Shown: positions 6,595 to 59,501 of the stretch, one piece after another | Position numbering within the stretch: position 1 is the stretch's first letter | Layout of the letters: the number at the start of each line of letters is the position of its first letter | NCBI GenBank assembly: GCA_001244265.2 | Contig: CDLV01000007.1 | Coordinates: forward strand, 1,860,001-1,924,000 | From: Microbotryum violaceum | Taxonomy: Eukaryota | Length of the DNA: 64,000 bases | Direction: 5' to 3' | Notes under the pieces: generated by a model | The model's input: only the letters and a program-made list of their open reading frames with translations | The model's database searches: none | What the model was told of the DNA's origin: nothing | Position numbers and translations under genes: made by a program

Positions 6595-9500
6595 CTAAAA
6601 TCCACTGACCCTTTTCTTGGCCTTCTTTTTCGCTTTCAGCCTCTCCTCCAAACTCAATCCACCCCCACCTGTCCCACTCCCCGCTCTCGTCCCAAAAGCC
6701 CCCGGAACAAACTGAGAAGCCGCCATCGTCCTCGGAGATGATGGGGGCCCTGCCCCGCCCGCACTCCGCGACAACGTCGGGGGTTGACTGGCTGAAAAAT
6801 CGCGTACGCTCACGGAGGATTCTTGTGACGAGTTCAATGGCTGAGATAGATCGTCCGTAATTTCAACCCTTCTTTTTGTCGGCGATCGCCGGGCGTTGTG
6901 TTGCGGTGGTGGTGCATGGATGACGATGGAAGGGGGGACAACTTGGGACGAGCTAAAGATCCTCGACCCGTAGGCTTCGTGAATACGTCGAGGATACGAC
7001 GATGAAGGTAACCCTGTTCTTCGCTGGGATTCCTCCTTCTCTTCTTCCCCCTTCTTTTTCGTATCCCTACCATCATCGACATACATGTCCTCCCATTGGT
7101 ACGACTTGGGGTCCGCACCCGTGTGCCACTCGGACAAAATCCTCCGAACTCCGTTCGACGCAAGAGAAGCACCCGCCCCATCTCCATCATCGGACGACTC
7201 TGATCTATGCTCCTCGTCGTAAATTCGGACGGAAGATCCCGCCCTAGCACTAGCGACGAGTCGACCCAATCGCTGAGGTTTGAAATATGCGAAGTGCAAC
7301 GAAGGTATATCCTCGTCCTCGGAGAGGCGCGCGGGCAGAGGTCGATTTATCAAGTCGAGTCGAGAGGGCGGGTCAGGGATGACCGGTCGATCAGAATATG
7401 CTCGATTTGAGAGAGCGAGATCGAGCGAAAGGTCAGGAGCATACGGCTCGTCGATCGAATTGGCTTGCCCGTAGCGGCTTCGGAGGGTCCGAGTGTAGGC
7501 TTCGACCGACGCCTCGGTCAACTCAGGTGGGCAGTCACATAGCCGGGCAAGTGCTACAGCCGAGCCTGGATTGCCGGAGTGAGCACCCAAAGTTTTCAAA
7601 AAGTGCTGGAACTCTGTTGGAAATCGATGCGACAGCGCTTCCTCCACTTGGGCGAGCTCGTCGTCGTCAAAATCAAGTCGTGCTCGCTTTGGTAGCGCGG
7701 GTCTCTCCATGGAAGTGACTTGATCAGACAGAATGTCGTAGCTGCAGTTGGCGAACGAACATATTAGCGAGTCTAATCATACGGCTCTTCTCTTCACCTA
7801 GACTCACAGCGTCTTCATCTGTTTCGCCCGTGGCGGCTCATCCTCATGACCCTCCGTGAGATCCGCAACTCGCATCGTCGACCTTCGCACCCTCCGATCG
7901 TTATCCAACATCCTAGCTAACCTACCGAAAGGCTTTATTTTTTTCCCTTCCACGACTGGGATCCCCGAGTCCTGCAAACGCTTGAATTTTTGTCCTGTTT
8001 GCCCCCAATCTACGTCCACCCGACCCTCCCGCAGTTTCTCCCCCACCAGGGCCCCACGTTCCCACAACCCACCCCCCATCTCAGATTCCAAAAACCTCCA
8101 ACCCCCTTCTTCGCCCGCAATCCCGATCCCACTCCTCGACCACCTCATCCCATCCTCCATCGTTACCACTGGTCCAGATATCGAATACGGGTCCAGAAGA
8201 CTAGTTACGACTCCACCTTTGATCTCGAGAGTGTAGACGTCGATCCCTGAATGAAGGCGAGAGGCGAGGCCGATGCGCCAAACATCTCCCGAATCCGTAT
8301 TGGCGCTCGAAAGGGTGCCTATCGTGAAAAGGTATAACGTCCGATCGTACCCTTTTCCCATTGGACCAACTCGAGGCATAGGGAAAGACAGGATCGGACG
8401 GAGAGGGAAGCGAGCGTCGAGGATCGTGAGGGGTGACGAAGGGGTCGAGATGGCCGCATAGGGCGTTGAGGGGCGGGTGAGGAGGGAGGTGATGCATGAA
8501 TCGACGTTACTTGATGCGGGGGAGGTGAAGATGACGAGAGATGAGGTTGGGGACTGTAGCTTCAAGAGTGTCAGTACTTTTGCGCGACTTCCGACTGCTT
8601 CTGATCCCATTCCCACCTACCCTGAGATCATACAAAGTGACCTCGCGCTGACTCGCGACGATCAATTCTCTCTCATCCCTTCCCCACCCAAGCCTTCTGA
8701 ACTTGCCTTGCTTGGCATCCCCTTTCCTCAACCTATACATCTCCGGTGCTTTCCCTTTCCAATCCCCATTCGGATCGCCTATCCGATCTGACCCTCGCAC
8801 CCCGATGCCAAAACTAAAGACCGATCCGTCGGTGTCGATCAAGGCACCTGAGCCGAGTTGATGCGGGGACAGAGAGAAGGAAGTGATGGGTCGACGGAAG
8901 AAGGAGGTGGAGGTATAGGTGAATGAGTTGAGGATCTGAGGCTTCGATGTGCTGTAGTTTGATGAGGGATGCACAGCCAGGTGGGTCAATGTGAAGTCGG
9001 TTATCGTCCGCGTTGCGAGTAGAGCGGTAGAAGGGATGGGAAGAGGCGAAAGCTCCATCTGGACGATGGGTGTAGAACATGGTGTCTCAAGCAGAGGTTC
9101 ACCACACGGTGAAATGGGGGTCGTTGGTATTGTAGATGAGTCTTCAGCGCATACTGCCGGGGAGAGAAAAGTCTGCGCCCATCCGATCGAGGTAGTCCTA
9201 CCGCCTTCGGCCGACGTAGCTGTGCTCGTACTTGTGCGCCAAGCGGCACAAACTGAAGAGGTGCCATCGTGATGTGTGATTGATGTCGAAGCTAGACAGT
9301 TGCCGAGATTGGGGTTCAAAGATTTGTCGGCCTCGGAGCGTCGCTCGTTGATCATCGCCGAGAGCAAGATTGAAGGATGACAAGGGGGGCTCGAGCGGAG
9401 AATAGACTGGTTAGAAGGATCAAAAGGAGCTCATAATCAGATACGCTTCCATCTTGAGCATCTGCTTTGCGGCTACGACCTACAAATTGCCGAAAGAGCT

Positions 9501-10100
9501 CGACCCTGCTCGCCGCAGCCAATCTATCGCCTTGAATCTCGATCGCCTCGGCTTCGTCGCACGCGACGGCGATCGACCTGCAGCGTCGTATCGGTGGTCT
9601 GGAAGGATTGGGCCGGATGCGCAAGTCTGAACAAACGAAGAGGATCAGCAACTCGACCGCTTTTGCTCAAAAGGGCCGGCTCGGGTACCGTAGCCCACCT
9701 TGTCGCTGCTGAACCGCTTGAACCCATTTGAATCCTAGCACCCGTCGCTCATCATCCTCGTCCTCGTCGTCGATCTGAAGCTCCAATCTGGCCGCCCCAA
9801 AGGCTCCTGGAGTCAACTTGAGGTGGTGCGACCATGTCTCGTTGTATGGGTTCCGGTAGTCATGGTCACCTCCGCTTCGTGGGGTTGGAGGGGGCGGTGG
9901 GTAGTAGCACGTGATCGACGAGCGCCTACACGACGTGCATGGGTATTGTCCGTCGCAAGTGGATCGTTGGGGCTTTGACGTCGTTGAAATTTGTTCGGAA
10001 CCTGTATAACGTAAAGAAGATCACCAGCTCAGCTTTGGCCTTCACCGCCAATACGCGGGGACTGCATCGCAACTGACAAGCGAGGCAAGCGACGGTGCTC
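6595..10100 (-). CDS. Multi-exon protein, probably RNA polymerase I core factor subunit Rrn6/TAF1C-like; 5' boundary approximate
   Basis: Colinear ORFs 8507-9367, 7804-8616 and 6595-7710 joined by introns. N-terminal TPGAFGAARL, beta-propeller-like middle (TILDARFPLRPILSF), C-terminal RRILSEWHTGADPKSYQW, SSQ/SQP-rich tail ending KKKAKKRVSGF. Family call is from motif recognition only. Confidence 0.55.
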
Positions 10101-10543: not shown

Positions 10544-11208
10544 ATGGCCAGTACCGCGTCCTTGCTTCCCACTGACTATGCAACTCTCGGCTCATTTTCA
10601 TTCCCGCCCTTCTCCTCCGCACACATACTCTTTACCTTCTTTTCCACTGTGCAGGCCGAAGTCAACCCCAAAGCTTTCCCCTTGGCCGATGCCGCCCTCA
10701 CTAGCCAGATCTTGGACTTGATTCAGCAAGCCAGCCACTACAAGCAGGTCAGCCCGCATACTCGCAGCGAAACGAGCGACGGCGCACATCTTCCCCTACC
10801 AAGGCATAGACAAGACTGACCATAAACATGAAATCTCACAGCTCAAGAAGGGAGCTAACGAAGCTACCAAGACCTTGAACCGCGGAATCGCGCAAATCAT
10901 CGTCATGACCGCCGACACGGAGCCGATCGAGATCCTGTTGCATCTCCCCCTCTTGTGCGAGGACAAGAACGTGCCGTACGTCTTTGTTCCCTCCAAGACG
11001 GCATTGGGTCGCGCGTGCGGTGTCTCGAGGCCCGTCATCGCTTGCTCCGTCACGACCAACGAAGCGAGGGAGTTGCAAGGCCAGATCGATACCATCCGAG
11101 TCAGTCCGAGCGGGGCCCTCTGAAGCATCTGTTGTCTGGTCAGCCGAATGCTAACCATCCTCTTTCATTCTTTGTCCACAGAACCAAATTGAGCGTCTCC
11201 TCATCTAA
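10544..11208 (+). CDS. SNU13: Snu13/15.5K K-turn-binding snRNP/snoRNP protein (L7Ae family), 4 exons
   Basis: [29 protein letters not shown] | [71 protein letters not shown]...IR | NQIERLLI*. Introns about 10748-10841 and 11100-11181; the first intron has ambiguous boundaries. Confidence 0.96.
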
Positions 11209-16600: not shown

Positions 16601-16753
16601 ATCCTGACGATGAAACCAGGGTACTCAAAGGAAAAGCGGGGAGAGTCACCAGAGTAAGCTAAGAACACACACAGCACAAAGCAGCAAGGAGGAAAGAAAA
16701 ATGGAGAAACCCAGAAGAAAGAGCAACAACCTGTGAGAGCTCCGAGTCCATAC

Positions 16754-17113
16754 TGTGAAGAGTCCACTCTCAGCTCGACAGGGGCGCCTCGGTCGTTGCG
16801 CGAGCCCGCTAGCCCGCCCCCCTGCGGTGAGGACTTAGACGCGCGCGACTGCCTCAGCGCGCCAGCGATTTCACCCACGGCTGGGCCTATCCCAGCCCGG
16901 GCCCCCTTTTTGTTTCTTAGCTTCCTTCTCATCACTTCTGTTTGACTCTCAACCTCTCCTGAGAGTCGTGGTGATCATCTTATAGGTACGCTGAAATACA
17001 TCACTTCTTTTTGACTCTCAACCTCTCCTGACAGTCGTGGTGATCGTCTTATAGGTTATTCGCCCATTGACCTACCGCTGGCATGAACACGTCGTTGCCC
17101 CTAACGACGGGTG
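16754..17113 (+). mobile_element. Copia LTR family A (16754-17053, TG...TA, duplicated 3' unit) plus PBS and first bases of gag, truncated by the next element
   Basis: Starts TGTGAAGAGTCCACTCTCAGCTCG, ends CTTATA|GGTTATTCGCCC. The internal stub matches 27320-27382. Confidence 0.85.
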
Positions 17114-17337
17114 TATAAGACGATCACCACTACTGTCAGGAGGGGTTGATAGTCGAACAGAAGTGATGAGGAGGAAGCTAAGAACAGACAGGAGGCCCGC
17201 GCTGAGATAGGCCCAGTCGCAGGTGAAATTGCTAGCGCGCTAAGACAGTCGCGCGCGTCTAAGTCCCCAGCGCAGGGGGCGGGCTAGCGGGCGTGCGCAA
17301 CGACCGAGGCGCCTCTGCCAAGCTGAGAGTGGACTCG

Positions 17338-19278
17338 TCACACCCCCCCCCCCACGCGAATGCAAGGCAGACCCAAGCGTGGGTGTCGAGTGCGCAAGCC
17401 AAGAGCATAGCAATGCATGGAAAAAATCTTTGGGCCAAGTGCCTTGGTAAAGATGTTGGCCACCATGTTGCTTGTCCCCACGTGGGAAAGAGAAATCTCA
17501 CCCCGATTCACCATGTCCCGAACGAAGTGCTCACGCAGACGGATATGTCGAGTCCCGGATGCGCGGACAGGGTCTCGTGCGACAGCGGCAGCAGCTTCGT
17601 TGTCAGTGTAGATGTGAGCTGGGATACCAGACTGGACATGGAGCTCCTCAAGCAGCTGACTGAGGTAGATCCCTTCCTTGCCAGCATGCGAGAGAGCGAG
17701 GTATTCCGCGTCGGTGGTAGAGTCGGCGACCCGCGATTGACGCTTGGAGGACCAGGATACAGCGGAGCCGGCAATGTAGAAGACGAAACCCATGGTGGAG
17801 ACCGATGTGTCGACGCAGGCACCCCAGTTTGCATCGGAGTAACCTACCACGCCCGTGATGCCCATCTTACCACAAGTGTAGAGAAGCTCGTCGCGATAAG
17901 TGGCTCGGAGGTAGCGTAGGACATGCTTGACGGCAATCCAATGGCGCTGACCCGGGTTGTTGGCGAAGCAGGCCAGGTAAGATACGGCAAAGGCGCTGTC
18001 GGGGCGAGTGCCAAGTGAGATGTATAAGAGCGAGCCGATTGCCTGTAGATACCATGACCTGATCTGTTCCGTGCCTTGACCCGGAATGGCGGTGAGCGAA
18101 AGACCGGGGGTCATCGGGACGGTAGCGCTGCGAGTCGTAGTGTCGAAGTGGAACCGAGCGAGCACGTCCATGATGTACCGTTCCTGGCATAGGGCGATAG
18201 AGCCGTCGTTGAGCCGCCTGATCTGGATGCCGAGGATGTACTCGGCCGGTCCAAGGCCTTTGACACTGTAACGTTGTTCCAGGCCCGAGATGACGCGTTC
18301 GATCTCGGCCAGGTCCGGGCTGATCATCAGAAGGTCGTCGACGTACAGTGCGATGTAGTGTGGGCTTTGACGATCGTCGAGCCGAGAGTAGACGCAGTGA
18401 TCGGTGCCCGTCGCCGTATACCCGAGAGCACGAAGCGAAGCGTCGATGTGTCGATTCCAGATGCGGCCGGCCTGTTTGAGCCCGTAGATGGAACGGCGCA
18501 GTCGAAGCACCTTGTCGCTGGGAAGGTCGAAGCCGCGCGGTGCCGTCATCCAGATGTCGTGATCGAGGTCGCCGTGAAGATAGGCTTTGTCGATGTCCGC
18601 TTGGTGTACATGCAGGCCGTTGGCGGCCGCGAGCGCGAGGAGTGAGCGTATTGAAGAGAAGCGGGCAACGGGTGCGAACGTCTCGTTGAAGTCGATGCCG
18701 TCGCGTTGGTGATTGCCCTGCGCAACGAGCCGTGCCTTGTGTCCAGTGACGTCGCCGAGTGCGTTCCGTTTGGTTTTCCAGACGAACTTGGACGTGACGA
18801 TGGTCGCACCAGGGGGTACTGTAGAGCGATCGTCGATGGTGAAGACCTTGAAGTCATCTCGCATGGAATTGAACTCGTCGGTGGCGGCCTTGGCCCATAC
18901 CTCACGCTTGTCGCTGGACATTGCCTCGCGCCAGGTCTGTGGGTCACTGGTGATGGACTTAACTGGTTGAATGGCCTCGGCGTCAGACACGTCGTCGTCG
19001 GTTGCAATGAATGCGCGGTGATGTCGGATGAGGAAAGCGAGTTCGTCCGGCGATTCGTCGTGAGAGGGGTGCCCAATGAGGTCGAGTTCGTCAGGAGACT
19101 CCTCAGCCGATGCGGGCTCACGGTACGTGCTGAAGTCTGGGTGGTGCACGGCCGGTGGGTCGAAGCGAACCTGGGGCTGTGAGCCGATAAGGTTGAGAGG
19201 ATCGGCGGAGTATTCAGAGTCAGTCGGTAAAGCCGATGGTGACGATGACGCAGCCGACGATGTGGAAGGCACAGGCAA
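17338..19278 (-). pseudogene. Copia RT/RNase H ORF
   Basis: [54 protein letters not shown]. Confidence 0.92.
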
Positions 19279-21517
19279 TGGCGACGTGGGCGGCTCAGGC
19301 GACGGTGACGAGGACAGGACGACGGCGAGGAGGACGGTTCGGCATCTGTGGGGTTAAGTAAGGTTCCGCCAGTGTACCCTGGGGCCACGTCAACGGCGCT
19401 CATGGGAGAATCATCAAGGGGGGATGAGACGTCCATGTGCGCCGACCTTACTAGTGGGGTCCTCGTCTTGATGGCGGGGGCGGGCGGATTGGCAGGAACG
19501 ACGACGTAGCGTTCGGTGTTGGCCAAGTTGACGGGTGCGTCGTCCTGCAGGCCGGGGAAGTCGTTGTCCAAGAAGGTGACATTTCGGCCAAGTACAATCT
19601 TGTTGACGGAGTGGTCAAAAAAACGGAAAGCCTTGGAGGCGAGGTCGTAACCGGTGAAGATCACGCGCCTGGCTTTGGGGTCGAGCTTGTTGCGAAGGTC
19701 CGGGGCGATCGTGAGCCAGGCGGCGCAGCCAAACGGGTGGAGGGCGGTGGCGGTGGTGCGTTGGCCGTTTCAAGCGGATTCTGGAGTCTGTTTGGCTAAA
19801 GCGGAGTGTGAGCACCTGTTTTTGCAATGAACAAAGTACGCGGCCGCCTCATCCCAAAAGGTGGCGGGCAAACGAGAATCGGCGAGGAGAGCGAGGACAC
19901 CTTCGACGATGGAAAGGTTGACACGTTTGGCGCGACCATTTTGTTGAGGTGTGTACGGTATAGAGTACTGGCGGCGAATACCCCTGGACTTGCAGAACTC
20001 CGTGAAGGCAGTGAAGCGATACTCCCCACCATTGTCGGAGCGGAGGATCTTCAAGCGTGCGTTTGTCTCCAATTCCACCTCGGCGAGCCAAGTCTTGAAG
20101 GTTGGAAAGACGTCGCTTTTGTGGTCGATCGCGTATGCCCAGAGTTTGCGAGAGTGGTCGTCGAGTAACGTGACGAGGTAGCGCTTGCCGGTCAAAGACG
20201 GAGTCGGAAACAACAGGACGTTGCTGTGTACGAGGCCGAGTCTCTCGGAGGAGTGCGAGTCCGAGTCAGGGAAAGGGAGGCGATGGCCTTTGGAACCAAG
20301 GCAAGCATTGCAAACAAACTGCTCTATGTCTTTGTCACTATATCCGACCCCAAACCCGTCCAACAAACCAGCGGCCATCATCTTCTGTATAGAGGATGGA
20401 GCAAGATGGCCGAGGCAGCGATGGAGGGTAAGCAGGGGCACGGTGGACTCAGAACGCGAGAGTAAGGCAAGATGCTGACATTTTGAGTGATCCGCGTCCA
20501 GGAGGTAGAGACCCTCGTCGACCCTGTGACCTTGAGCGATGGCCTGACCGTCCTTCGCGATGTTGATGCCTTCGTTGGTGAAGGCGAGTTGAACACGGTC
20601 GGTGTCGCAGAGGCGAGAGACGGATAGAAGGTTGACGGCGAGACCAGGCGTATGAAGGACGCCACGCAGCGTGATCGGATGTCCGGACTTGGCAACGAAG
20701 GCCACGTCACCGATGCCAATGGCCGTGATGCCGCCTGCAATGCCGCCTATTTTGGTTTGCGCCGTGCGGCGGTACGTGGTGAACAGAGACCGATCAGCAA
20801 CCATGTGTGCCGTGGCACCCGAATCAACCACAAAGGCGTCATCAGGGAGGTGGCGGCAAGCAAACAGGCAGGAGGCGAAATAGCCGATGTTAGGCTGTTG
20901 AGACGCAGTTGATACCGAGTCGTCGTGGTTGCTGTCGCTGGTGGTTTTCTGCTCCCCTTGGTGCTTGCAGTCGAGGGCCCAGTGGCCTTTTTTGTGGCAT
21001 CGGCAGCAAGGACCGGTGGGGGGTGCTTGGCTCGCGACTTGCAGTCGCGAAGGCGGTGACCAGGGGCGTGGCAGGCTGGACAAAGCGATGGCGTGGCGAG
21101 CATGTCCAAAGGCGAGGTGGAAAGTCCTGCCGAGCGAAGTTGGATGCGGATGCGGTCCGTGAGCGTCATGAGTTTGGGAAGTTTGCGCTGGCTTTGCTGC
21201 TCGTCTGTGAAGGTCAGGCGGAAGCTGTTGAGGCAGGACGGAACCATGGCGAGGACGTGGGTGGCGAGGACGTGGTGGCGAGGACGTGGGTGGCGAGGAC
21301 GTCGTTGAGCGATGTTTTGGCATCACGGATTTCTTGTGCAACCGACATGTACTCGCGGAGCCAAGTGTCGTATGCCTCGACGGAAGCGGGCATCTTCTTG
21401 AAATCCCAAAGACGGGCGAAGAGTTTGAGGGTGCGCGTGGCATCGTCCGGTGCAAAACGAGCCTTGAGAGTCGCAAAAATGCGAGGGGCTGACAGCTGGT
21501 CGCTGGGATGGCATCGA

Positions 21518-23587
21518 TGTCATTATATGGTTGCATCGTCCTTCAGTCTACGTATAGTACCTGTTATGGTACTTCATCTTGAGCCTCTAGCGACTTCATG
21601 AATCCCTTCAGCACCTCATTTGTCTTACCCTTTTTTAGTCACTATTAGCTCTTTATTATCTCCGCTTATCATCCCTTCCTAGTCCTTCTGGAGTTTGTCC
21701 CTTAGCCTTTGGCCACTCTGTTCTCGTCCCGTTCCATTGGACTGAGTCATGGTCTTCATCAGGTATGCATTCTCTGGAATCCTACTCACTCTGTTCTCGT
21801 CCCGTTCCATTGGACTGAGTCGTGGTCTTCATCAGTTACCACATGAGAACATTTTTACAATAGGTTATGAGCCCAACGAGCTACCAAGCTGCTCTCGAGC
21901 CTTCGTCTTCCGCCCTCATCTCTAGGATCCACCTTAGCGACAATCCGAACTCGTACGAAGAATGGTCCGTCTGGATCAGCAACCATCTTCGTCGCAAGAA
22001 ATGTTTGGATGTCACAACTGTGGGCATTCCTGCTCTGCTAGCGATCTATGAGGCCGCCCTTGTCACCCCGTCCACTTCGCAAGCAACCTCCGCAGGCGCA
22101 AAGATTTCACCCGCCGCGCCTCGCGCGCTCACCTCTGCTCAGCAAGGACTTGTCGACATCTACACCCTTGATCTTGAAGCCAAGGATGACAAAGCTGCTG
22201 AGTTGATCAACAACACAATTACCGGTTCTCAAATGAAGATTATCAAGAATTGTGTTTCAGCCCATGAGATGTGGACCGCCCTACGGATTCACCACACCAA
22301 AGGCGCTGAAGCTCGCTTCATCCAGCTCATCCCCGTCATCTTCCGGAGCACGTTCACGCGTTCCAACACGTCCAATTTCAAGTCGTTTGTTTCCAACTTC
22401 CTAAACGCCGTTGAGGAAATCTCCACTATGGGTGTTCCACTGCCTGGTTTTGCGCAAGCCGCTCTACTCGTCCATTCGCTTCCGCCCGAATGGGAAAGTA
22501 TTGCAAGTAGCCTTACTACCAACCTCACCCTCGCTACAGACATTGATTCGTTCATTGCTGTCCTCTACGCTCAAGTTGATCGCAAAATGGCCTCGTCTTC
22601 TACTACTCATGGAGCCGAGCGCCACGCTTACGGGGGGATTGAATCCGCGCTGGCTATGTCCGCGCAAAGTCACGATCACTCCAAGGTTCACTGCAAGAGT
22701 TGCAACGTTATGGGGCATAGTTCCAAGTGGGCTGGTTGCCCTTCCCTCAAGAAAGCGCAAGCAGTCAAGGAGGAAGCAGCCAAAGCTATGTTTGTTAACA
22801 GCGCTTTCTGTCACTCGCTTTAATCGTCACAAGTCCTCGTCGTATCGGTCTTCTTCAAGCCGATCACCCGTCCAAGTTTCGTATCGGTGTCTCTTCATCA
22901 GCCCGATCAACCGTCAAGTCGTATTGGTATTCTTGCCAATCACCGTCCCCGTCTGCGAACATGATGGCTTCGTACACCAGCCCTTCGCTCCAAGTCCAAG
23001 TAGTGCCAACTAGTCCACCAGCGTACTCTGGTTTGTTGGCTTCCGTCCCCGCATTTGGTTATACTGGTCCCTTTCAGATCAGTTCTCCAGCCCGTTTTAT
23101 GGCGTCATTGTCCGTCATACCGCCACCCGTCTTCGGCCCCTTTTACCCGAACAAGTCCCGTCGCTTTCGGCTTTACCCGATCTCGTCAAAAGTCTTCGAC
23201 CATGTACCGTTTACTCCATCTTCGGACCTTCCAACCGGGGAGTGTCATTATATGGTTGCATCGTCCTTCAGTCTACGTATAGTACCTGTTATGGTACTTC
23301 ATCTTGAGCCTCTAGCGACTTCATGAATCCCTTCAGCACCTCATTTGTCTTACCCTTTTTTAGTCACTATTAGCTCTTTATTATCTCCGCTTATCATCCC
23401 TTCCTAGTCCTTCTGGAGTTTGTCCCTTAGCCTTTGGCCACTCTGTTCTCGTCCCGTTCCATTGGACTGAGTCGTGGTCTTCATCAGGTATGCATTCTCT
23501 GGAATCCTACTCACTCTGTTCTCGTCCCGTTCCATTGGACTGAGTCGTGGTCTTCATCAGTTACCACATGAGAACATTTTTACAATA
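21518..23587 (+). mobile_element. Young gag-only non-autonomous LTR retrotransposon (family E); 345-bp LTRs 21518-21862 and 23243-23587; TSD ATCGA
   Basis: Nearly identical LTRs ending TG...TA. ATCGA at 21513-21517 and 23588-23592. PBS at 21863, PPT GGGGAG at 23237-23242. No pol motifs. Confidence 0.93.
21867..22823 (+). CDS. Copia-type Gag (318 aa) with C-terminal zinc knuckle
   Basis: NSYEEWSVWI, SAHEMWTAL, LVHSLPPEWE, CKSCNVMGHSSKWAGC; uninterrupted ORF between PBS and 3' LTR. Confidence 0.85.
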   Translation: MSPTSYQAALEPSSSALISRIHLSDNPNSYEEWSVWISNHLRRKKCLDVTTVGIPALLAIYEAALVTPSTSQATSAGAKISPAAPRALTSAQQGLVDIYTLDLEAKDDKAAELINNTITGSQMKIIKNCVSAHEMWTALRIHHTKGAEARFIQLIPVIFRSTFTRSNTSNFKSFVSNFLNAVEEISTMGVPLPGFAQAALLVHSLPPEWESIASSLTTNLTLATDIDSFIAVLYAQVDRKMASSSTTHGAERHAYGGIESALAMSAQSHDHSKVHCKSCNVMGHSSKWAGCPSLKKAQAVKEEAAKAMFVNSAFCHSL

Positions 23588-24045
23588 ATCGAGGGCCGCC
23601 GAGACGTTGGCTGAGTCAATAGAGCCAACGATGATCTCGCGGGCAGCATCGTCACGGGCGGGCAGCTGCTCGGCCGTCCAGGTAGCGGGGATGACACCGT
23701 CGAGGACGTAGCTCCGAAGCTGGTTCGGGAGCGTCAGACGGAGTTGACGCAACCAATTCGTAAAAGATTTGGGTCCGTCAAGGCGAGCGTGTTTGGGAAA
23801 CACAACTTTGGATGCGGTGGTGGCGTGGACCGGCGTGGCTGCAACGGCCGGGGGCGTGGGAGCGGCAGCGGCTAGGGGCTGTGAGGCCTGCAGAGCGGCG
23901 AGTTGCGCCTGGAGAGTGGCGATTTGCGCGCTGAATGAGGGCTCAGGGGAGCTGGAATCCCTGGGCGGCAAGGGTGCGGCAGGAGGGCTGTCCATGCTGC
24001 GAGGGATGTGTGCGGTGCGAGTGGTTGGGCTCGAAAAATCCCTCA

Positions 24046-24046
24046 A

Positions 24047-24078
<32 letters not shown>
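24046..24078 (-). promoter_or_regulatory. Extended primer-binding site complementary to the 5' half (anticodon and D arms) of a tRNA-Met(CAU)
   Basis: Plus strand reads GGAGCAGCTGGTAGCTCGTTGGGCTCATAACC directly beside the LTR end; related sites at 21863, 37696, 30207, 41756, 50770, 25015 and 59988. Confidence 0.85.
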
Positions 24079-24458
24079 TGTAAGACAATCACCACTATTG
24101 TCAGGAGGGGTTGATAGTCAAACAGAAGTGATCTATTTCAGCGTACCTATAAGACGATCACCACTACTGTCAGGAGGGGTTGATATTCAAACAGAAGTGA
24201 TGAGGAGGAAGCTAAGAACAGACAGGAGGCCCGCGCTGAGGTAGGCCCAGTCGCGGGTGAAATTGCTAGCGCGCTAAGACCGTCGCGCGCGTCTAAGTCC
24301 CTACCGCAGGGGGGCGGCCTAGCGGGCATGCGCACGGATCCACCCGGCGCTGGCGCGCTGAGTCAGTCGCGCGTCTAAGTCCCCAGCGCCGGGGGTGGGC
24401 TAGCGGGCTCGCGTAACGACCGAGGCGCCTCTGCCGAGCTGAGAGTGGACTCATCACA

Positions 24459-25910
<1,452 letters not shown>

Positions 25911-27006
25911 TATTTGATCAACTCTACTACGTCAGCAATGTAGTTATAGCCAAGAGTGATGAATAGGAAGCTAACAATAAGAGACCTGCGCGCCCCAAGT
26001 CCACAGCCAGCGAGCCTTGGGGCTGAGTCAATGGCCCAGGCTCCCTCCGTGTGTCTAAGTCCCAGGCTCGCTCCGCGCGCCTAAGTCCTGGGCCGGGGCG
26101 CCCGGCTCGCTCCGCATGCCTAAGTCCTGAGCTGAGGGAAGAGTGGATTCCTCACACCCCCCCCAGCGAACGCAAGGTAGACTTGAGCCGTGGATGTCGC
26201 ATCCGGAGGCCAAGAGCATAGCAATGTGTACCGAAAATCTTGGGGCCCAGCGCTTTGATGAATACATCCGCAACCATGTTTGCTGTGCCAACGTGTGAGA
26301 GGGAGATATTGCCCCGATTGACCATGTCACGGACAAAATGCTCGCGGAGGCGGATGTGCCGGGTGCCAGAGGTGCGAACGGGGTCGTGAGCGACGGCGGC
26401 AGCGGCCTCGTTGTTGGTGAAGATGTGAGCTGCAGCAATTGGGCTAACGTGGAGCTCGGAGAGGAGTTGTGTAAGGTAGATCGCTTCCTTACCCGCGTGC
26501 GACAAGGCCAGGTACTTGGCATCAGTGGTGGAATCCGCCACCCAAGTCTGACGCTTCGATGACCAAGAGACGGCGGCGCCTGCCAAGTAAAATACATAGC
26601 CCATCGTCGAGATGGATGTGTCAACGCAGGCGCCCCAGTTCGCATCAAAATAACCAACCACACCCGTGACTTTTGCTGGACTGTGGGCATAGAGAAGCTC
26701 ATCGCGGTACGTGGTGCAAAGGTAGCAAAGGACATGTTTGACGGCAATCCAATGGCGGCAGCCAGGGTTGTTGGTGAACCGGGACAGGTACGAGACGGCG
26801 AAGGCAATGTTGGGTCGAGTGCCAAGGGAGATGTAAAGGAGGGAGCCAATGGCCTGTAGGTACCACAATTGAATGCGCTCCGTTCCCTGACCCAGAATTG
26901 CCGTGAGCAAGAGGCCGGGCGTCATCGGCACTGTAGCGCCGCGTGTTGTGGTGTCAAAGTGGAAACGGGCCAGCACGTCCATGATGTAGCGCTCCTGGGA
27001 TAGAGC
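25911..27006 (-). mobile_element. 3' fragment of Copia element: RT/RNase H end, PPT and LTR family B (25911-26156, single 3' unit)
   Basis: ORF 26152-26982 with RNase H motifs; G-run immediately before TGTGAGGAATCCACTC. Confidence 0.88.
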
Positions 27007-28082
27007 TGTAAAGAGTCCACTCTCAGCTCGACAGAGGCGCCTCGGTCGTCGCGCGCACCCGCTAGCCCGCCCCTTGCGGTGGGGACTTAGGCGCGCACGA
27101 CTGCCTCAGCGAGCAGGCGCCAGCGGACTCGGGCGCGCGCCCGCTAAGCCGCCCCCTTGAGGTGGCGACTTAGACGCGCGCAGCTGCCTCAGCGCCCTAG
27201 CAAGTTCACCCGCGGCTGGGCCTATCCCAGTGCGGGCCCCCTTTCTGTTTCTTAGCTTCCCTCTCACCACTTCTGTTTGACAATCAACCTCTCCTGACAG
27301 TAGTGGTGATCGTCTCATAGGTTATTCGCCCATCGAACTACCGCTGGCATGGACGACACGTCGCCACCCCTAGCGACGGGTGTCCACCCGACATTTCCCG
27401 CCGACCAGCTTGTCGCCCTTACGTTGCTGCTGTCGGGTCTCACCGCTGCCGCGTCCGGCACTGTCACAACCACCACGTTGTCTAGCACCACCCGCCCCGC
27501 CTTTCCCAAGCACGCACGCTTGGATGGGCCAAAGACATTTGCAAATTGGACACGCCAACTTCGCCTGTGCCTAGCGGACGACATCCGCTCGTACGTCCTC
27601 GACGGCATCGTGCCCATCGACTGGACCCCTTCGCAACGCTCCGCCCGCGATGTCGTGGCCCGCAAGCTCCTAGCGAACTCGATCGACTCAGCCGACGTCT
27701 CGGCAGTCCTCGACCAAATCCCTACCGCCGACCTCACAGCGCCCAAAATGTACTTGACGCTGAAATCGCGGTATGCTCCTGACGACGCCACTCGCACGCT
27801 CGAGCTCTTCTCCCGACTGTGGAGTTTCCGGCCCATGCCCGGCACCGTTGGCGAATTCGACGGCTGGATCATGGAGTTCAAAGCTATTGCGCAAGAAATC
27901 ATCGATACGAAGACCACGATCAACGATGTTCTCGCCACACTCCTCCTCGCCATCGCTCACCCGTCCCTCGAGAGTTTCAAGGCGTCGTTCACCGATGAAC
28001 AGCGCACCCAACAAGCTCTCCCTGTCATTGATTCGCTCGCCGACCGCATGCGTGTTCAACTCCGGTCCACCAACGTCCCCAG
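27007..28082 (+). mobile_element. 5' fragment of Copia element: LTR family A (27007-27319, single 3' unit), PBS and gag from 27349
   Basis: CTCATA|GGTTATTCGCCC followed by gag [16 protein letters not shown]; cut by LTR-B at 28083. Confidence 0.88.
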
Positions 28083-31000
28083 TATTCGATCACTCTACTA
28101 CGTCAGCGATGTAGTTCTAGCCAAGAGTGATGAATCATTACAACATACCTATTCGATCAACTCTACTACATCAGCGATGTAGTTATAGCCAAGAGTGATG
28201 AATAGGAAGCTAACAACAAGAGAGCCGCGCGCCTCACGTCCTCAGGCTGCGAACCTTGGGGCTGAGCCAATGGCCCAGGCTCGCCCTGCGCGCCTAAGTC
28301 CTGGGGCTGTGTGCGCCTGGCTCGCTCCACGCGCCTAAGTCCTGAGCCAATGCGCCTGGCTTGTTCTGCGCGCCTAAGTCCTTGGCCGGTGCGCCAGGCG
28401 AGCGTGCGCCTAAGTCCTGGGCCGGTGCGCCAGGCTCGCTCTGCGCGCCTAAGTCCTGAGCCGAGCGGAGAGTGGATTCCTCACAGTCTCTTGGGGGAAT
28501 GTGACTCTGAGTCGGGAAAAGGAAGACGATGGCCTTTGGAACCAAGGCAAGCATTGCAAACAAACTCGTCTACGTCTTTGTCACTGTACCTGGCCCCGAA
28601 ACCGTCCAGCAAACCTGCAGCAATCATCTTTTGTATGGAGGATGGGGCAAGATGGCCGAGGCAGCGGTGAAGGGTAAGCAGGGGCACGGGAGACTCAGAA
28701 CGTGAGAGCAAGGCAAGCTGCTGACATTGGGTGTGGTCCGCATCCAAAAGGTAGAGACCGTCGTTGACGCAAGTCCCATGAGCGATGGCCTGGCCGTCCT
28801 TGGCAATGTCGATCCCGTCGCTGGTGAAGGCGAGTCGAACGCGGTCGGTGTCGCAGAGGCGAGAGACAGAGAGAAGGTTGACGTGAAGACCAGGCGTGTG
28901 AAGAACGCCACGCAACGTGATTGGGTGTCCGGTCTTGGTAATGAACGCCACATCCCCCATGCCAATGGCCGTGATGCCGCCTGCGATACCGCCGACCCTG
29001 GTGTGCGCCGTCTGACGATAAGTCGTGAACAGCGAGCGATCGGCGACCATGTGTGTCGTGGCGCCCGAGTCGACGACGAAGGCGTCGGTCGGGAGATGGC
29101 GGCGAGCGAGTAGGCAGGAGGCGAAATAGCCGACATTTGGTTGTTGAGCCGCCGATGAGGGTGTGTTGTCCTGGTTGTCGTCGCCGATTCGTTTTTGGTC
29201 GCCTCGCGGTTTGCAGTCGAGGGCCCAGTGACCCTTCTTGTAGCAGCGACGGCAGGGGCCGGTGGGGGGTGTTGAGCGCGTGAGGTGCAGTCACGAAGGC
29301 GGTGACCGGGGGCGCGGCAGGCAGGGCATAGGGAGGCGGTAGCGAGCATGGCCGAGTGCGAGGTGTAGAGTCCCGCCGAACAAAGTTGGACGCGAATGCG
29401 GTCGGTCAGCGTCGTCAGCTCGGGAAGGTCGCGTTGGTGGCGTTGCTCGTCCGTGAACGTGAGTCGAAAGCTGTCGAGGCACGATGGGACCATGGCAAGC
29501 ACGTGAGTGGCGAGTACGTCGTTGAGCGAAGTTTTGGCGTCGCGAATTTCTTGTACGATGGACATGTACTCGCGCAGCCAGGTGTCGTATGCCTCAACGG
29601 AGGCAGGCATCTTCCTGAAATCCCAAAGGCGGGCGAACAACTCGAGGGTGCGGGTAGCATCGTCCGGTGCAAAGCGAGCCTTGAGAGCGGTGAAGATGTG
29701 CGGTGCTGAGAGATCGTCATTGGGAATGGCGTCGAGTGTGGCCAAGACGTCCGCGGAGTCGATAGAGCCAACGATGAGTTCCCGGGCGTCGTCGTCACGG
29801 GCGGCAAGCTGATTGGCCGTCCAAGTAGCGGGAACAACACCTTCGAGGACATAAGCATGGACTTGATTCGGGAGCGCAAGACGGAGTTGACGCAACCAGT
29901 TGGTGAACGATTTGGGACCGTCGAGGCGAGCGTGTTTGGGAAACACGACTTTGGCTGAGGTAGCGGCGTTGGTCTGCGTGGCGGGGGCGGCCAGGAGTGC
30001 GGGGCAGCGGTGGCGGGAGAGTGCGAGGCCTGCAGGGCAGCGAGCTGTGCCTGTAGAGTTGCAATTTGTGCGGCAATCGAGGATTCAGGGGGGCTGGGAG
30101 AATCCTTGGGGGCAAGGGCGGTGCGAGAGCGGGAGAGTCGCCCATGGTGCGAATGGATGTGTGCGGTCGAGTGGCTAAGCTCGAGAAAAAAAATGCAAGG
30201 CGGCGAGGCTGGTAGCTCGTGGGCTTATAACCTATTCGATCAACTCTACTACGTCAGCGATGTAGTTATAGCCAAGAGTGATGAATCCATTACAACATAC
30301 CTATTCGATCAACTCTACTACGTCAGCGATGTAGTTATAGCCAAGAGTGATGAATAGGAAGCTAACAACAAGAGAGCCACGCACCTCAAGTCCTCAGGCT
30401 GCGAACCTTGGGGCTGAGCCAGTGGCCCAGGCTCGCCCTGCGCGCCTAAGTCCTGGGGCTGTGTGCGAGGCTCATTTCGCGCGCCTAAGTCCCAGGCTCA
30501 CTCCTCGTGCCTAAGTCCTGAGCCGGTGCGCCTGGCTTATTCCGCGCGCCTAAGTCCTGGGCCGGTGCGCCAGGCTCGCTCTGCGCGCCTAAGTCCTGAG
30601 CAGAGCGGAGAGTGGATTCCTCACAGTCTCTTGGGGGAATGTGACTCCGAGTCGGGAAAAGGAAGACGATGGCCTTTGGAACCAAGGCAAGCATTGCAAA
30701 CAAACTCCTCTACGTCTTTGTCACTGTACCCGGCCCCAAACCCGTCCAGCAAACCCGCAGCGATCATCTTCTGTATAGAGGATGGAGCAAGGTGGCCGAG
30801 GCAGCGGTGGAGGGTAAGTAGGGGCACGGTAGACTCAGAGCGTGAGAGAAAGGCAAGCTGCTGACATTTGGTGTGATCCGCGTCCAGGAGGTAGAGACCG
30901 TCGTTAACCCGTGTACCGTGAGCAATGGCCTGGCCGTCCTTGGTGATGTCGATGCTGTCGCTGGTGAAGGCAAGCCAAATGCGGTCGGTGTCACAAAGGC

Positions 31001-31675
31001 GAGAGACGGAGAGAAGGTTGACGTGAAGGCCCGGCGCGTGCAGAACGCTGCGCAACGTGATCAGGTGTCCGGTGTTGGCAACAAACGGTACATCCCCATA
31101 CCAATGGCCGTGATACCGCCTGCGATACCGCCGACCCTGGTGTGCGCCGTCTGACGATAAGTCGTGAACAGCGAGCGATCGGCGACCATGTGTGTCGTGG
31201 CGCCCGAGTCAACTACGAAGGCGTCGGTCGGGAGTTGGCGGCGGGCAAATAGGCAGGAGGCGAAATATCCGATGTTCGGTCGGTGAGCCGTGGCGAAGAC
31301 AAGTCGTCCTGGGTGTCGTCGCTGGTACGTGTCGGTTGGCCCCGGTTCTTGCAGTCAAGGGCCCAGTGACCTCGCTTTTGGCAGCGGCGGCAGGGGCCGG
31401 TGGGCGGATGCTTTGCACGTGAAGTGCAGTCGCGCAGGCGGTGGCCGGGGGCGCGGCAGGCGGGGCAAGAGGGGGCGTCGGCGAGCATGGCCGAATGCGA
31501 AGCCGAGAGGCCGGCGGATCGGAGCTGAACGCGGATACGGTCCGTTAAGGTCGTGAGCTCCGGGAGTTTGCGCTGGGCGCACTGCTCGTCCGTGAACGTT
31601 AGCCGGAAGCTGTCTAGGCAGGACGGTACCATGGCGAGGATGTGGGTGGCGAGTACGTTGTTCCGCGATGTCTTG
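28083..31675 (-). mobile_element. Tandem internally deleted Copia units with family B LTRs (28083-28485 and 30233-30625), each gag-protease-pre-integrase only
   Basis: Both LTRs abut the same integrase position (...SHSPKRL|TGTGAGG); PBS at about 30207-30232; no RT. Confidence 0.85.
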
Positions 31676-34600
31676 TGTGAGATCAAATATCTCCTTCATG
31701 TCCTTCTTGTATCTTGTACCTACCTCAACATCCTCCTCTCTTCGTTTTGATCACTTTTGGCCTACTTTTCACCACCTTAGCTCTCCCACTCTGGGCCTGG
31801 TCTCTGCACCTGGGCCAGGTCCGTGCGCCTGACTTTGGCTGGGCTGACTTGGGCCCAGCCAAATGGCCCCACTCTGGTTTCTCTCCTGCTCAAGCAACTT
31901 CTTGGTCTGGTCTCCCTTGGTCCTTTGATCAGAGACTTACCACCGCTTGAGCAGGTGAGCACTACTCTTCCTATCATCTTTCACCCCTCTAGATGTGGTA
32001 ACTTACTGTAGTGCTTGAGCAGGTGTGTAACAAGCAACTTCTTGGTCTGGTCTCCCTTGGTCCTTTGATCAGAGACTTACCACCAATTGAGCAGGTGTGT
32101 AACAAGCAACTTCTTGGTCTGTTCTCCCTTGGTCCTTCGATCAGAGACTTACCACCGCTTGAGCAGGCGTGACAACATCATACATAGGGATCAGGAGCTC
32201 CGGGATTTTTACTGCAATGCTTGTCTCGCTTCCAAAGCGCATGCCCTCCCCTTTGCCCGGTCCAAGTCCATTGCCTCTGGCCGCCTGGATCTCCTCCATG
32301 TCGATGTAGCGCAAATGCCTCGCCCTACATTTGGTGGACATCGGTACATGCTGGTCATCATTGATGACTTCTCTCGCAAGCACTGGTGTATCCTCCTGGC
32401 ACTCAAAAGTGACGTCTTCCCTCGCCTTTGCGACCGGATCCTTGAAGTCGAGAATGCCACCGGCAACAAGGTGAAGACCATCCGCTCTGACAATGGAGGC
32501 GAGTTTACTCTGGGCAACTTCGTTGACTTCTGTGCAAGCAAAGGCATTCGTCGGGAACTCACCATCCCCTACACACCCCAGCAAAATGGGCGTGTTGAGC
32601 GCAGCAATCGCACCTTCAAGGAGGGTATCCTTGCTCTGCTCTACTCCTCTGGCGCTGATTCACGCCTCTGGGGTGAGGCCGCTTTGTACTATGTGCACTG
32701 CAAAAACCTGATGCCTCACGCCGGCATTGGTGGTGAGATCCCCGACACTCGTTGGCATGGCTTTGCGCCTGACATCTCCACCCTTCGCGCATTTGGCTGC
32801 CGCGCTTGGCACCACCTTCCCTCGGCCAAGCGCACGGACCTCGACCCCAAGGCTGTAACCCTCCTGTTCGTTGGTTTTGACCACCATACCAAGGCTTTCC
32901 GACTCTTCGAGCCGTCCACGCGCAGGATACAACTCAGCCGCAATGTCGTCTTCCGTGAATCCGAGTTCCCTGCACTCCGGCCAGCCACCAACGTTCGCGC
33001 TGAACCAATCCCACTCCCCGTCACTGTTGACGCATACCCTGACCAGGTAGACCCCTTGAGCCTTCGCTCGTTGCTTCCCCTCGCTCACTCGCGCCTCGCG
33101 CTGAGCCACCTCGACCCGTGCCGGCAGCCCCTGACCAGGGCCCGCACCGTCCCGCCCCTGCCTGCGAGGTCCCTGACCAGGACTTGCTCGCACCCCCTGC
33201 CCCTGACCAAGGCTCCCCTGCTCGTGAGCTCCCTGACCCGGAATCACCTGCATCAAGCGCCTCTGACCAAGGTAGCTCTGACTCGGCCATCTCCACGCCT
33301 TGTCCTTCCCCGCGCCCCGTGGCCTCCCGTGCGTTGCCAGCGCCACCCTCACCCGCTCGGTCCGACTCCCCGGACCCGATCGATCTCCTGCCACGCCCAC
33401 GCGATGTTGCTTCGATATGCCAGGCGCAGGAGTTTCCCGACGACGTGGATGACGCACTCCACTCACCCTCTGCCGTGGCCTACCTTGCCTCTGGCGCTGC
33501 CGCCCTCATTGAGACCTCGCCCGCCGACCCTGCGGAACTGATTGCCCCCGCTCGCGACCCACCTCACTGGCGAGCGGCCATGGCCACTCCTCAAGCGGAT
33601 GAATGGCGTCTTGCGGCCCGCGACGAGTTTGACTCACTCTTGCAAGATTTTTCGGCGTTCACACCGATTGACGAGTCCCTTGTCCCAGCAGACGCCAAGG
33701 TCCTGGGCTCCCGCTTTGTCTTCCGCACCAGACGCGACCAGCATGGCCAAGTCAAGTCCTACAAGGGCCGTCTCGTTGCTCGTGGTGACTCCCAACGCTC
33801 TGGCATTGACTTTGACGAGACCTTTGCACCCGTGGCCAAATTCACCTCCATCCGCGCACTCCTGGCTCTTGCTGCTGCTCATGGGTACCACGTCCACCAG
33901 GCCGACATCGACAAAGCCTACCTGCACGGCAAACTCGATGCACCCCTGTACATTCGTGTGCCTGATGGCATCTACATGCCAGGCAAGGTCCTCCAACTGC
34001 ATCGGTCCCTCTATGGTTTGCGCCAGGCCGGTCGCATCTGGAACGACGAGATTGACTCTGCCTTGTCCGCACTCGGCTACGTCGCCACCGAATCCGACCA
34101 CTGCGTCTACGTCAGGACAACGGGTGATGTGCACCACTACATTGCGCTCTATGTCGACGACCTGCTCATGATCAGCCCCTCTCTCCCTGAGATTGAGCGT
34201 ACCCTTCAGGGTCTTGAGCAGCGCTATGGTGTCAAACGGCTCGGTGAGGCAGAATACGTCCTTGGCATCCAGATCCGGCGCTCTCCAGACGGTTCCATCT
34301 CTCTGAGTCAGGAACAATACCTCAAGGACGTCCTTGCCCGATTTGGAATGTCCGATGCCCATCCCGTTGCCACGCCCATGCAGCCCGATCTCCGCCTCGA
34401 AGTCGAGCTGCAGCCCACCCCATTCCCGGATCGCACTCGGTACCTGCAGGCCATTGGTTCCCTTATGTACGCGTCCACTGGTACTCGGCCCGACCTGGCT
34501 TACACCGTCGGTTACTTGGCTCGCTTCTCTCACTCGCCTTCCGCTGCTGCTTGGGGAGCTGTCAAACACGCCTTCCGTTACCTCGCTGGCACTCTTTCTC

Positions 34601-35629
34601 ACGGCTTACGCTACGCTCGTGGGAATCCGGCACCGCTCTTGGGCTACTCCGACTGCAACTGGGGTGCATGCGTCCTCTCTTCCAAGTCGACCATGGGTTA
34701 CCCTTTCGTCTATGCAGGTGCTGCCGTCTCATGGTCCTCCCGGCTTCAATCGCGTGTTGCCGACTCCACTTGTGACGCCGAGTACCTCGCACTGTCACAC
34801 GCTGGTAAGGAGGCAATCTTTCTGCGTCAGCTCTTTGGTGAGCTTGGCCTTTCGTCTTCAAAGCCCGTCCTCATCTACGGCGACAACCAAGGCGCCAATG
34901 CTCTCACCAAGAATCCGGTATTTCATGCTCGGACTCGGCACATCCGCCTGCGCGAACACTTCGTCCGGGATATGGTTTCCATGGGCGACATTGTCGTCCA
35001 GTACATCAACACTGGTGAGATGACAGCGGACATCTTCACCAAAGCTTTGTCACGCGACCTCTTTGCTCGGCACCGCGGTTGACTCGGTATCTGTCCTCCC
35101 TGATACTCGAAGTAGGGGGGGTGTGAGATCAAAATATCTCCTTCATGTCCTTCTTGTATCTTGTACCTACCTCAACATCCTCCTCTCTTCGTTTTGATCA
35201 CTTTTGGCCTACATTTCACCACCTTAGCTCTCCCACTCTGGGCCTGGTCTCTGCACCTGGGCCAGGTCCGTGCGCCTGACTTTGGCTGGGCTGACTTGGG
35301 CCCAGCCAAATGGCCCCACTCTGGTTTCTCTCCTGCTCAAGCAACTTCTTGGTCTGGTCTCCCTTGGTCCTTTGATCAGAGACTTACCACCGCTTGAGCA
35401 GGTGAGCACTACTCTTCCTATCATCTTTCACCCCTCTAGATGTGGTAACTTACTGTAGTGCTTGAGCAGGTGTGTAACAAGCAACTTCTTGGTCTGGTCT
35501 CCCTTGGTCCTTTGATCAGAGACTTACCACCAATTGAGCAGGTGTGTAACAAGCAACTTCTTGGTCTGTTCTCCCTTGGTCCTTCGATCAGAGACTTACC
35601 ACCGCTTGAGCAGGCGTGACATCATCACA
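31676..35629 (+). mobile_element. Copia family D element lacking PBS, gag and protease: LTR 31676-32182, integrase-RT-RNase H, PPT, LTR 35122-35629
   Basis: Near-identical LTRs; ORFs 32087-33541 (IRSDNGGEF) and 33118-35082 (YVDDLL, YSDCNW); PPT GTAGGGGGGG. Confidence 0.92.
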
Positions 35630-59100: not shown

Positions 59101-59501
59101 ACGCCACTCGTCAGCTTGAGGGGTTGCCATGGCAGCACGCCAGTGAGGGGGATCCCGGGCGGGCGCGATCAGTTCCGTCGAGTCCGTAGGCGCGGTGTTG
59201 AGCAAGGCGACGGCGCCGGAGGCAAGGTGGGCAACAGGTGGAGGCGAGTGGAGGGCGTCGTCCAGGTCGTCGGGGAATTCAGGTGCGAGACAGACGGAAG
59301 CAATATCACCCGAGCGTGGCAAGAGGTCGATAGGGTCGGGGGACTCGGATCGAGCGGGCGAGGACGGCGCGGGCAACGGACGTGGCACCACCGGTCGAGG
59401 GGATGGACAAGGCGTGGAGATTGCCGAGTCGGAGCTGCCCTGGTCAGAGGCGTGGGTGGCGGGGGAGTACTGGTCAGGGAGGCCACCCGTACGGTTGATG
59501 A

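Follow-up and report, generated by a model that had tools for sequence, protein, structure and literature searches.

An intron-like, homogenised repeat module at the LTR/PBS junction of Ty1/Copia elements in Microbotryum violaceum: a candidate for regeneration by strand transfer

Results

A module of real, non-random character, clade-wide and maintained by replication-linked copying, is located at the 3' end of the LTRs of Ty1/Copia elements in a 64,000-nt stretch of the Microbotryum violaceum genome (assembly GCA_001244265.2, contig CDLV01000007.1, positions 1,860,001 to 1,924,000; hereafter the window). It consists of a sequence unit, an intron-like spacer and a further copy of the unit, and its letters make it a candidate leader intron that would be rebuilt thanks to the exon repeat, a reading to which we assign slightly less than an even chance. 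Among the readings considered, this proposed regeneration model fits the data best.

Host genes (among them an RRN6-like gene and a SAPS-domain gene, for which an Atlas search returned nothing more specific than a 'fungal-like SAPS protein') fill the first ~11.5 kb of the window, beyond which lies a strongly nested and rearranged Ty1/Copia field; G+C amounts to 54-63% across the window. The LTR elements belong to Ty1/Copia, as seen from their Pfam domains (RVT_2, rve, gag_pre-integrs, Pol_BBD and Retrotran_gag_2), the position of the integrase upstream of the RT on the same strand, the flanking LTRs and the 5-bp target-site duplications (ATCGA and CTCGA). The window also contains a 10.5-kb segmental duplication (44240-54784 versus 53458-64000, identity 99.8%), tandem blocks of 1947 bp at 46391-50764 (each made of a four-unit LTR-C and an inverted RT fragment) and inverted duplicates at 34465-35629 and 36112-37273 (identity 98-99%).

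The repeat module in LTR-A and LTR-B

The following LTR-A copies and parts were recognised:

16754-17053, plus strand: LTR-A copy A1, two units, with a purine-rich tract before it and the PBS after it
16930-16985, plus strand: unit1 of A1 with its final G, putative exon 1, beginning at CA behind a pyrimidine tract
16986-17054, plus strand: candidate intron of A1, 69 nt, formed by the spacer (GTACGC...) and unit2, with a CTGAC branch motif and a TAG acceptor
17114-17342, minus strand: single-unit LTR-A, presumed 3' LTR of the minus-strand element M1 (17114-24459)
24079-24459, minus strand: LTR-A copy A2, two units, 5' LTR of M1
24078-24146, minus strand: candidate intron of A2, 69 nt (GTACGC...CTGAC...CAG)
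27006-27319, plus strand: single-unit LTR-A, with the PBS from 27320
45954-46335, plus strand: two-unit solo LTR-A (A3), with a CTCGA target-site duplication on either side

Within A1, G16985 comes after unit1 (16930-16984), 16986 is the first base of the spacer and unit2 spans 16999-17053, the two units differing at 3 of 55 positions. The 69-nt segment reads GTACGC...CTGAC...TATAG, with the branch A 24 nt ahead of the junction, and its last base (G17054) is at the same time the first base of the PBS. The solo LTR A3 has a donor at 46268, but since it ends in ...CTCATA and the next base is C, it is left with no acceptor G; a near-identical duplicate of it lies at 55172-55553. A purine-rich tract (16680-16752) directly precedes A1, which, having the PBS on its 3' side, may be the shared LTR of a tandem element array (compare 28083-31675).

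LTR-B is represented by:

30233-30625, minus strand: LTR-B copy B1, two units, with the PBS at 30232
30232-30300, minus strand: candidate intron of B1, 69 nt (GTATGT...CTGAC...TAG)
28083-28500, minus strand: LTR-B copy B2, two units, without PBS, 3' or shared LTR of a tandem array
25909-26155, minus strand: single-unit LTR-B

The units of B1 are identical (54/54), and B2 is a second two-unit LTR-B that the first-pass annotation of this DNA did not contain. Tandem repeats of 26-75 bp occupy the U3 of LTR-B (28262-28462, 30426-30601 and 26035-26088) and, to a lesser degree, that of LTR-A; they are built on a GCGCGCCTAAGTCC-like motif and may be enhancer-type repeats.

That annotation had described the 69-nt GT-AG segment of A1 (with its CTGAC branch motif and its acceptor G borrowed from the PBS), segments of the same length at 24078-24146 (minus, CAG acceptor) and 30232-30300 (minus), a solo LTR followed by C, and single-unit copies of both families, all of which we recovered at the positions given above. 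It had also held that splicing would rebuild an exact LTR end, and sequence comparison bears this out, as excising one period leaves precisely the single-unit LTR, a form also found in the window.

The same layout in families C, C' and D

A PBS search revealed the same unit/spacer/unit layout in three families that were absent from the first-pass annotation:

41337-41755, plus strand: LTR-C copy Ca, unit1 at 41606-41666, 14-nt tail, PBS at 41756
41667-41741, plus strand: candidate intron of Ca, 75 nt (GTGTGT...GAGCAG)
25045-25386, minus strand: single-unit LTR-C, PBS at 25033-25044
46391-46949, plus strand: LTR-C copy Cb, four units (u1, u2x, u3 and u4)
50284-50769, plus strand: LTR-C copy Cc, three units (u1, u2x and u3), PBS at 50770, with a duplicate at 59502
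31675-32195, plus strand: LTR-C', four units (u1, u2x, u3 and u4), terminal junction CAG/GCGTGA
21518-23587, plus strand: element D, a gag-only Copia derivative of 2070 bp with an ATCGA target-site duplication

In Cb (which recurs at 48338, 55609 and 57555) the unit u2x is diverged and intron-like (46721-46792, GTGAGC...CAG), and further LTR-C' copies (98%) are located at 35121-35647 and 36114-36619 (minus). Element D is nested in the minus-strand element 17114-24459 and is young, with 345-bp LTRs (99.7% identical); each of these comprises unit1, a candidate 73-nt intron (21763-21835 in the 5' LTR, GTATGC...CATCAG) and a 27-nt tail, with the PBS at 21863. The periods in C, C' and D measure 72-75 nt (2-4 units), and those in A and B 69 nt, with a spacer of 13-16 nt. 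Copies of family C have 1 to 4 units, and LTRs with a single unit exist in A and B as well. The acceptor AG of C, C' and D lies 14-27 nt inside the LTR, and 3' and solo LTRs therefore hold the whole candidate intron. Consequently, the earlier proposal that only the 5' LTR possesses an acceptor stands for A and B and fails for C, C' and D, where a candidate intron is contained in every LTR.

Two older presumed LTR pairs are discordant in unit number: in M1 the LTRs at 24079-24459 and 17114-17342 have 2 versus 1 unit (U3 agreement 94.7% over 187 bp), and those at 41337-41755 and 46391-46949 have 2 versus 4 (98.8% over 333 bp). No replication model predicts such pairs, and, the region being rearranged, they may not be true ones.

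PBS and primer

The PBS motif matches 10 times in the window (2.5 expected), with an LTR adjoining 9 of the 10 sites, and is common to the LTR families of this Copia clade. Two of its forms are:

17054-17079, plus strand: PBS of A1, variant GGTTATTCGCCC...
24053-24078, minus strand: extended PBS next to A2, GGTTATGAGCCC followed by 14 nt common to the families

Conservation extends over ~26 nt after the LTR at 24053-24078 (minus), 21863-21888, 30207-30232 (minus) and 41756-41781. The reverse complement of this stretch resembles what we take, from the general layout of tRNAs, to be the D-loop to position ~40 of a tRNA with a CAT anticodon, which suggests a long half-tRNA PBS. A1 and the copy at 27320 have a two-base PBS variant (TC for GA) that is a misfit to that anticodon loop. 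A search for tRNA genes across the window returned none, and Rfam gave only a chance-level match for the PBS stretch, which is a short query.

Intron-like signals

The internal unit junctions listed read AG/GT with a purine at +3, G at +5 and a pyrimidine at +6 in 20 of 20 cases (donors GTACGC, GTATGC, GTATGT, GTGTGT and GTGAGC, i.e. GTRNGY), versus 0 of 17 terminal junctions, which read GTTATN (the PBS itself), TT, TC, GC, CT, CA or GA; these counts are non-independent, as the lineages have a common ancestry and several copies are near-identical duplicates. Past the terminal junction, A and B continue into the PBS or flanking DNA, C into TT or TC, C' into GC and D into TT. AGGT occurs at both junctions in A and B, and the terminal junction of C, C' and D is AG/TT, AG/TC or AG/GC. 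As the tail of C and C' nearly copies the spacer in all other respects, the mismatch falls exactly on the donor dinucleotide (+1 or +2), and does so in two different ways. Five LTR lineages of otherwise diverged sequence have kept a GTRNGY donor, a branch motif and a YAG acceptor, the donor motif even where the remaining spacer is unalignable between lineages. The branch motif is CTGAC in A and B (branch A at -24 in both), CTCAC or CTTAC in C, and a weaker CTGAG in D.

Host introns for comparison were delineated with RNA contigs of a related species:

7742-7807, 8554-8620 and 9627-9698, minus strand: host introns
10748-10841 and 11100-11181, plus strand: host introns

These stem from nine extracted contig joints, five of which gave clean GT...AG introns, the other four being offset by inserted letters because the RNA source is a relative diverged by 5-9%. 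The host introns (n=5) measure 66, 67, 72, 82 and 94 nt, all have CAG acceptors, and combine donors of the form GTNNGY (GTGAGT, GTAGGT, GTGGGC, GTCAGC and GTCAGT) with the branch motifs CTAAT, CTGAC, CTGAT, CTGAC and CTAAC. With lengths of 69-75 nt (66-94 nt in the host), the candidate introns conform, as far as sequence can tell, to the U2 type (that of the host) in donor, in the spacing of branch motif and YAG acceptor (judged against a range of 15-35 nt) and in length.

Concerted evolution of the units

Units within one copy differ at 1-5 of 55 positions in A, 0-3 of 54 in B, 0-4 of 61 in C/C' and 0-1 of 49 in D (0-9%), versus 35-53% between families (41-53% for C, C' and D against A and B). 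Moreover, copy-specific changes are common to the units of a copy (bases specific to A3, and two positions in C at which Ca and Cb differ). In the 3' LTR of D the units are identical (49/49), and evidently all D units were identical at insertion. Because units are alike within a copy and the families are diverged, it follows that the units are homogenised during replication; the pattern of substitutions indicates that one unit is repeatedly copied onto another in this process, and that the first and last units are the ones involved. One unit behaves differently, namely the second one in those C and C' forms that have 3-4 units; it is diverged and not homogenised. Its conservation between C and C' is limited to the first ~19 nt and the last ~30 nt (i.e. 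donor and branch/acceptor); in sequence terms, it is conserved as an ordinary intron would be.

Occurrence of the repeat beyond chance

The spacer motif has 6 matches in the window (0.91 expected), each directly behind a unit. Direct-repeat scores reach 45-67 at five PBS-adjacent LTR ends of the window, and the best score was at most 11 at 19 of 19 Copia LTR ends with the same PBS in metagenome contigs scanned for the LTR-end-plus-PBS pattern (124-300 nt upstream of the PBS at each of the 19 loci, at least 8 of which belong to two redundant groups). As none of the 19 control ends carries such a repeat, the unit repeat is not a general feature of Copia elements with this PBS.

Several other readings of single parts were tried. 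A templating of the spacer from elsewhere in the elements was rejected, since the spacer motif is confined to six LTR sites. RNA folding as the reason for the units was unconvincing (z = -1.77, -1.38, -0.49 and +0.38 for the units of A, B, C and D), the whole A1 module having z = -2.58 and the D module -0.30. A TATA box at the unit end was discarded on account of the loss of the motif in A3 and B, and a cap-copy footprint (a G before unit2 in A2, A3, B1 and B2, absent in A1, C and D) was too weak.

RNA contigs

Four sequence runs were compared as contigs, two of them RNA-like (X17 and X18, taken as RNA because host introns are skipped in them, and stemming from a relative whose sequence departs from that of the window by 5-9%) and two DNA-like (X14 and X16). 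LTR/PBS joints (including 16985/17055 and 24077/24147) were absent among the 15 of 41 joints listed, which, with contigs of a diverged relative, is uninformative either way. Furthermore, identical units leave no 31-mer unique to the spliced form, and the contigs are hence blind to splicing in B1, A3, C and D. The RNA contigs include a two-unit, spacer-bearing form of family C over the single-unit copy at 25059-25110, which points to unspliced RNA or else to a carry-over of DNA into the run. As to element D, word depth in the RNA run is several-fold higher than in the DNA run, and 687 nt of its gag region (22148-22836) are skipped by contigs of the RNA run and not by those of the DNA run; the skipped segment has non-canonical ends (CT..TC) and could be a deletion variant of the related species, or an artefact.

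Discussion

In the replication of LTR elements, both new LTRs obtain their R-U5 from the 5' end of the RNA, by way of a strong-stop cDNA that then pairs with the 3' R. On the assumption that the module occupies the R/U5 part at the LTR 3' end (exon unit, AG/GTRNGY spacer and exon-unit copy ending in AG), transcription would start at the first purine of the unit behind the pyrimidine tract (in every unit1 the first base is a purine, with a run of pyrimidines before it), and the poly(A) site would fall within or beyond the last unit, leaving at least the start of that unit in the RNA 3' end. As the last unit of A and B reaches the LTR end, their RNA 3' end must fall inside unit2 or in flanking DNA, and no poly(A) signal could be named from the sequence of these two families. 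Splicing of the leader would supply a single-unit 5' end, the strong-stop cDNA of which would land on the downstream unit of the unspliced 3' end; this out-of-register first-strand transfer would cause spacer and unit1 to be recopied, so that the module is rebuilt and unit2 overwritten by unit1. Since every round of replication would replace unit2 by the 5' unit1, the model predicts concerted evolution within copies. In the 3-4-unit forms of C, each splice would rebuild AG/GT, and removal could proceed stepwise (recursively).

The regeneration model accounts for the restriction of donors to internal junctions, for units that end in AG and for a homogenisation that has its boundary at the junction. 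It also accounts for the single-unit by-products: as the 3' part of the intron repeats the exon, exactly a single-unit LTR would be left after splicing (or after the RT has jumped from one unit to the other). The first-pass annotation had advanced the same cycle; the homogeneity of units within copies is what it predicts, and the discordant unit numbers of the M1 and 41337/46391 pairs are something it did not foresee and count against it. It had started from the premise that LTR elements lose their introns, which is too simple: retroviruses and copia keep theirs because the packaged RNA is unspliced. For the same reason regeneration is not required by an intron as such; what calls for it is the repeated exon, together with the homogenisation of the repeat. 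In its strict form (i.e. that the leader intron must be spliced for good expression or a host-like mRNA, and is kept since strong-stop cDNA from the spliced end re-creates it on the unspliced 3' exon copy in every cycle) the model is tentative, and we would regard it as somewhat doubtful.

The best surviving alternative is an R/U5 minisatellite, in which units in or beside R expand, contract and homogenise through out-of-register transfer or RT template switching, with the GT spacer unspliced and having another role (such as U1 binding or 3'-end control) or none. Misaligned strand transfer with gain and loss of units can also give concerted evolution with no splicing at all, and such a minisatellite would sit well with the 1-4 units of family C, the single-unit forms of A, B and C, the discordant presumed pairs, the presence of the spacer in RNA contigs and the lack of an LTR splice joint among the 15 of 41 listed. 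On the other hand, it leaves unexplained why GTRNGY follows AG at all 20 listed internal junctions and at none of the 17 terminal ones, why the near-copy tails of C and C' are altered at exactly +1 or +2 (TT, TC or GC), why the period falls within the host intron size range and why the sole non-homogenised unit is conserved in an intron-like manner; nor do the units possess an unusual RNA fold (z -1.8 to +0.4). We hold it to be possible, at well below even chance.

A retained leader intron of the ordinary kind, spliced for the mRNA and inherited passively through packaging and copying of the unspliced RNA (as in retroviruses), would be in keeping with the splice-like donor, branch and acceptor signals. 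The single-unit LTRs would then be dead ends, derived from spliced RNA or from a deletion made by the RT, and the exon repeat would be a remnant of the tandem duplication at AGGT that gave birth to the intron, a mode of origin documented, in the available text of the source, for host genes (PMC3265369) and matched here by the AGGT at both junctions of A and B. A relic repeat should decay, however, yet units are near-identical within copies and differ by 35-53% between families, and this lack of decay requires repeated copying of one unit onto the other. We therefore consider passive retention rather unlikely. Chance resemblance or an assembly artefact, for which the repetitive and rearranged context speaks and nothing further, is scarcely credible in view of the recurrence of the layout in five lineages and many copies, the presence of two-unit B forms also in the DNA run of another strain, the 0 of 19 controls and the enrichment of PBS and spacer motifs.

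If both splicing and regeneration hold true, the module would be a natural way for an element copied through RNA to keep a spliceable intron, would connect the maintenance of an intron with the way first-strand transfer works, and would explain a concertedly evolving tandem repeat at the LTR/PBS junction. Introns are needed for mRNA accumulation in Cryptococcus (PMC3744415), as well as in Armillaria and Ganoderma, according to the available portions of these accounts, so a leader intron could benefit an element in a host of that kind. Even without splicing, the module clearly illustrates how sequence within LTRs is homogenised by replication. Our literature search returned no account in which strand transfer regenerates an intron, or in which an LTR contains an intron that repeats its exon.

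Comparison with known systems

The introns of retroviruses and of copia/EVD-type retrotransposons span coding regions and are not known to repeat the upstream exon. They resemble the module in that a retroelement carries splice sites (candidate ones here) and its unspliced RNA is still copied; they differ in that the candidate intron described here is located inside the LTR, beside the PBS, and has a copy of the exon as its last part. As to the primer, half-tRNA priming is documented, in the parts available of the two sources, for copia and Ty5 (PMC5371799; bioRxiv 10.1101/2025.04.25.647736), and our elements may be comparable, the PBS directly adjoining the LTR and its reverse complement resembling the general layout of a CAU-anticodon tRNA from the D-loop to the anticodon stem-loop; this likeness bears on the primer alone and does not extend to the intron-like module.

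In split-intron retroviral vectors (Ismail et al. 2000, as related in the available part of PMC3182074) the donor sits in the 3' LTR, the acceptor follows the packaging signal, and the intron of the provirus is likewise assembled by LTR copying in reverse transcription; these vectors are engineered and one-way, and have, by that account, neither an exon repeat nor a regeneration in each cycle. Spliced transcripts within LTRs have been described in maize, as the first such evidence to the knowledge of its authors (bioRxiv 10.64898/2026.05.08.723830). The maize introns share the location inside LTRs, but, going by the available text, they have a mean length of 1303 bp, belong to LTR-contained non-coding transcripts and are without an exon repeat or a link to strand transfer.

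A further structural parallel concerns the gain of introns in host genes by tandem duplication at AGGT (the Rogers model; PMC3265369 and PMC4974935, each in its available part), where, too, the 3' part of the intron repeats the upstream exon, the junctions are AG/GT and splicing restores the unduplicated sequence. By this measure (AG/GT at both ends together with an exon-identical 3' part), A and B possess the complete structure, and C, C' and D the exon repeat only. In contrast to the module, the introns in those accounts are single events in host genes whose repeat decays, whereas the LTR repeat stays near-identical over a long divergence; furthermore, the donor here belongs to a non-repeated spacer, and the terminal junction of C and D is not AGGT.
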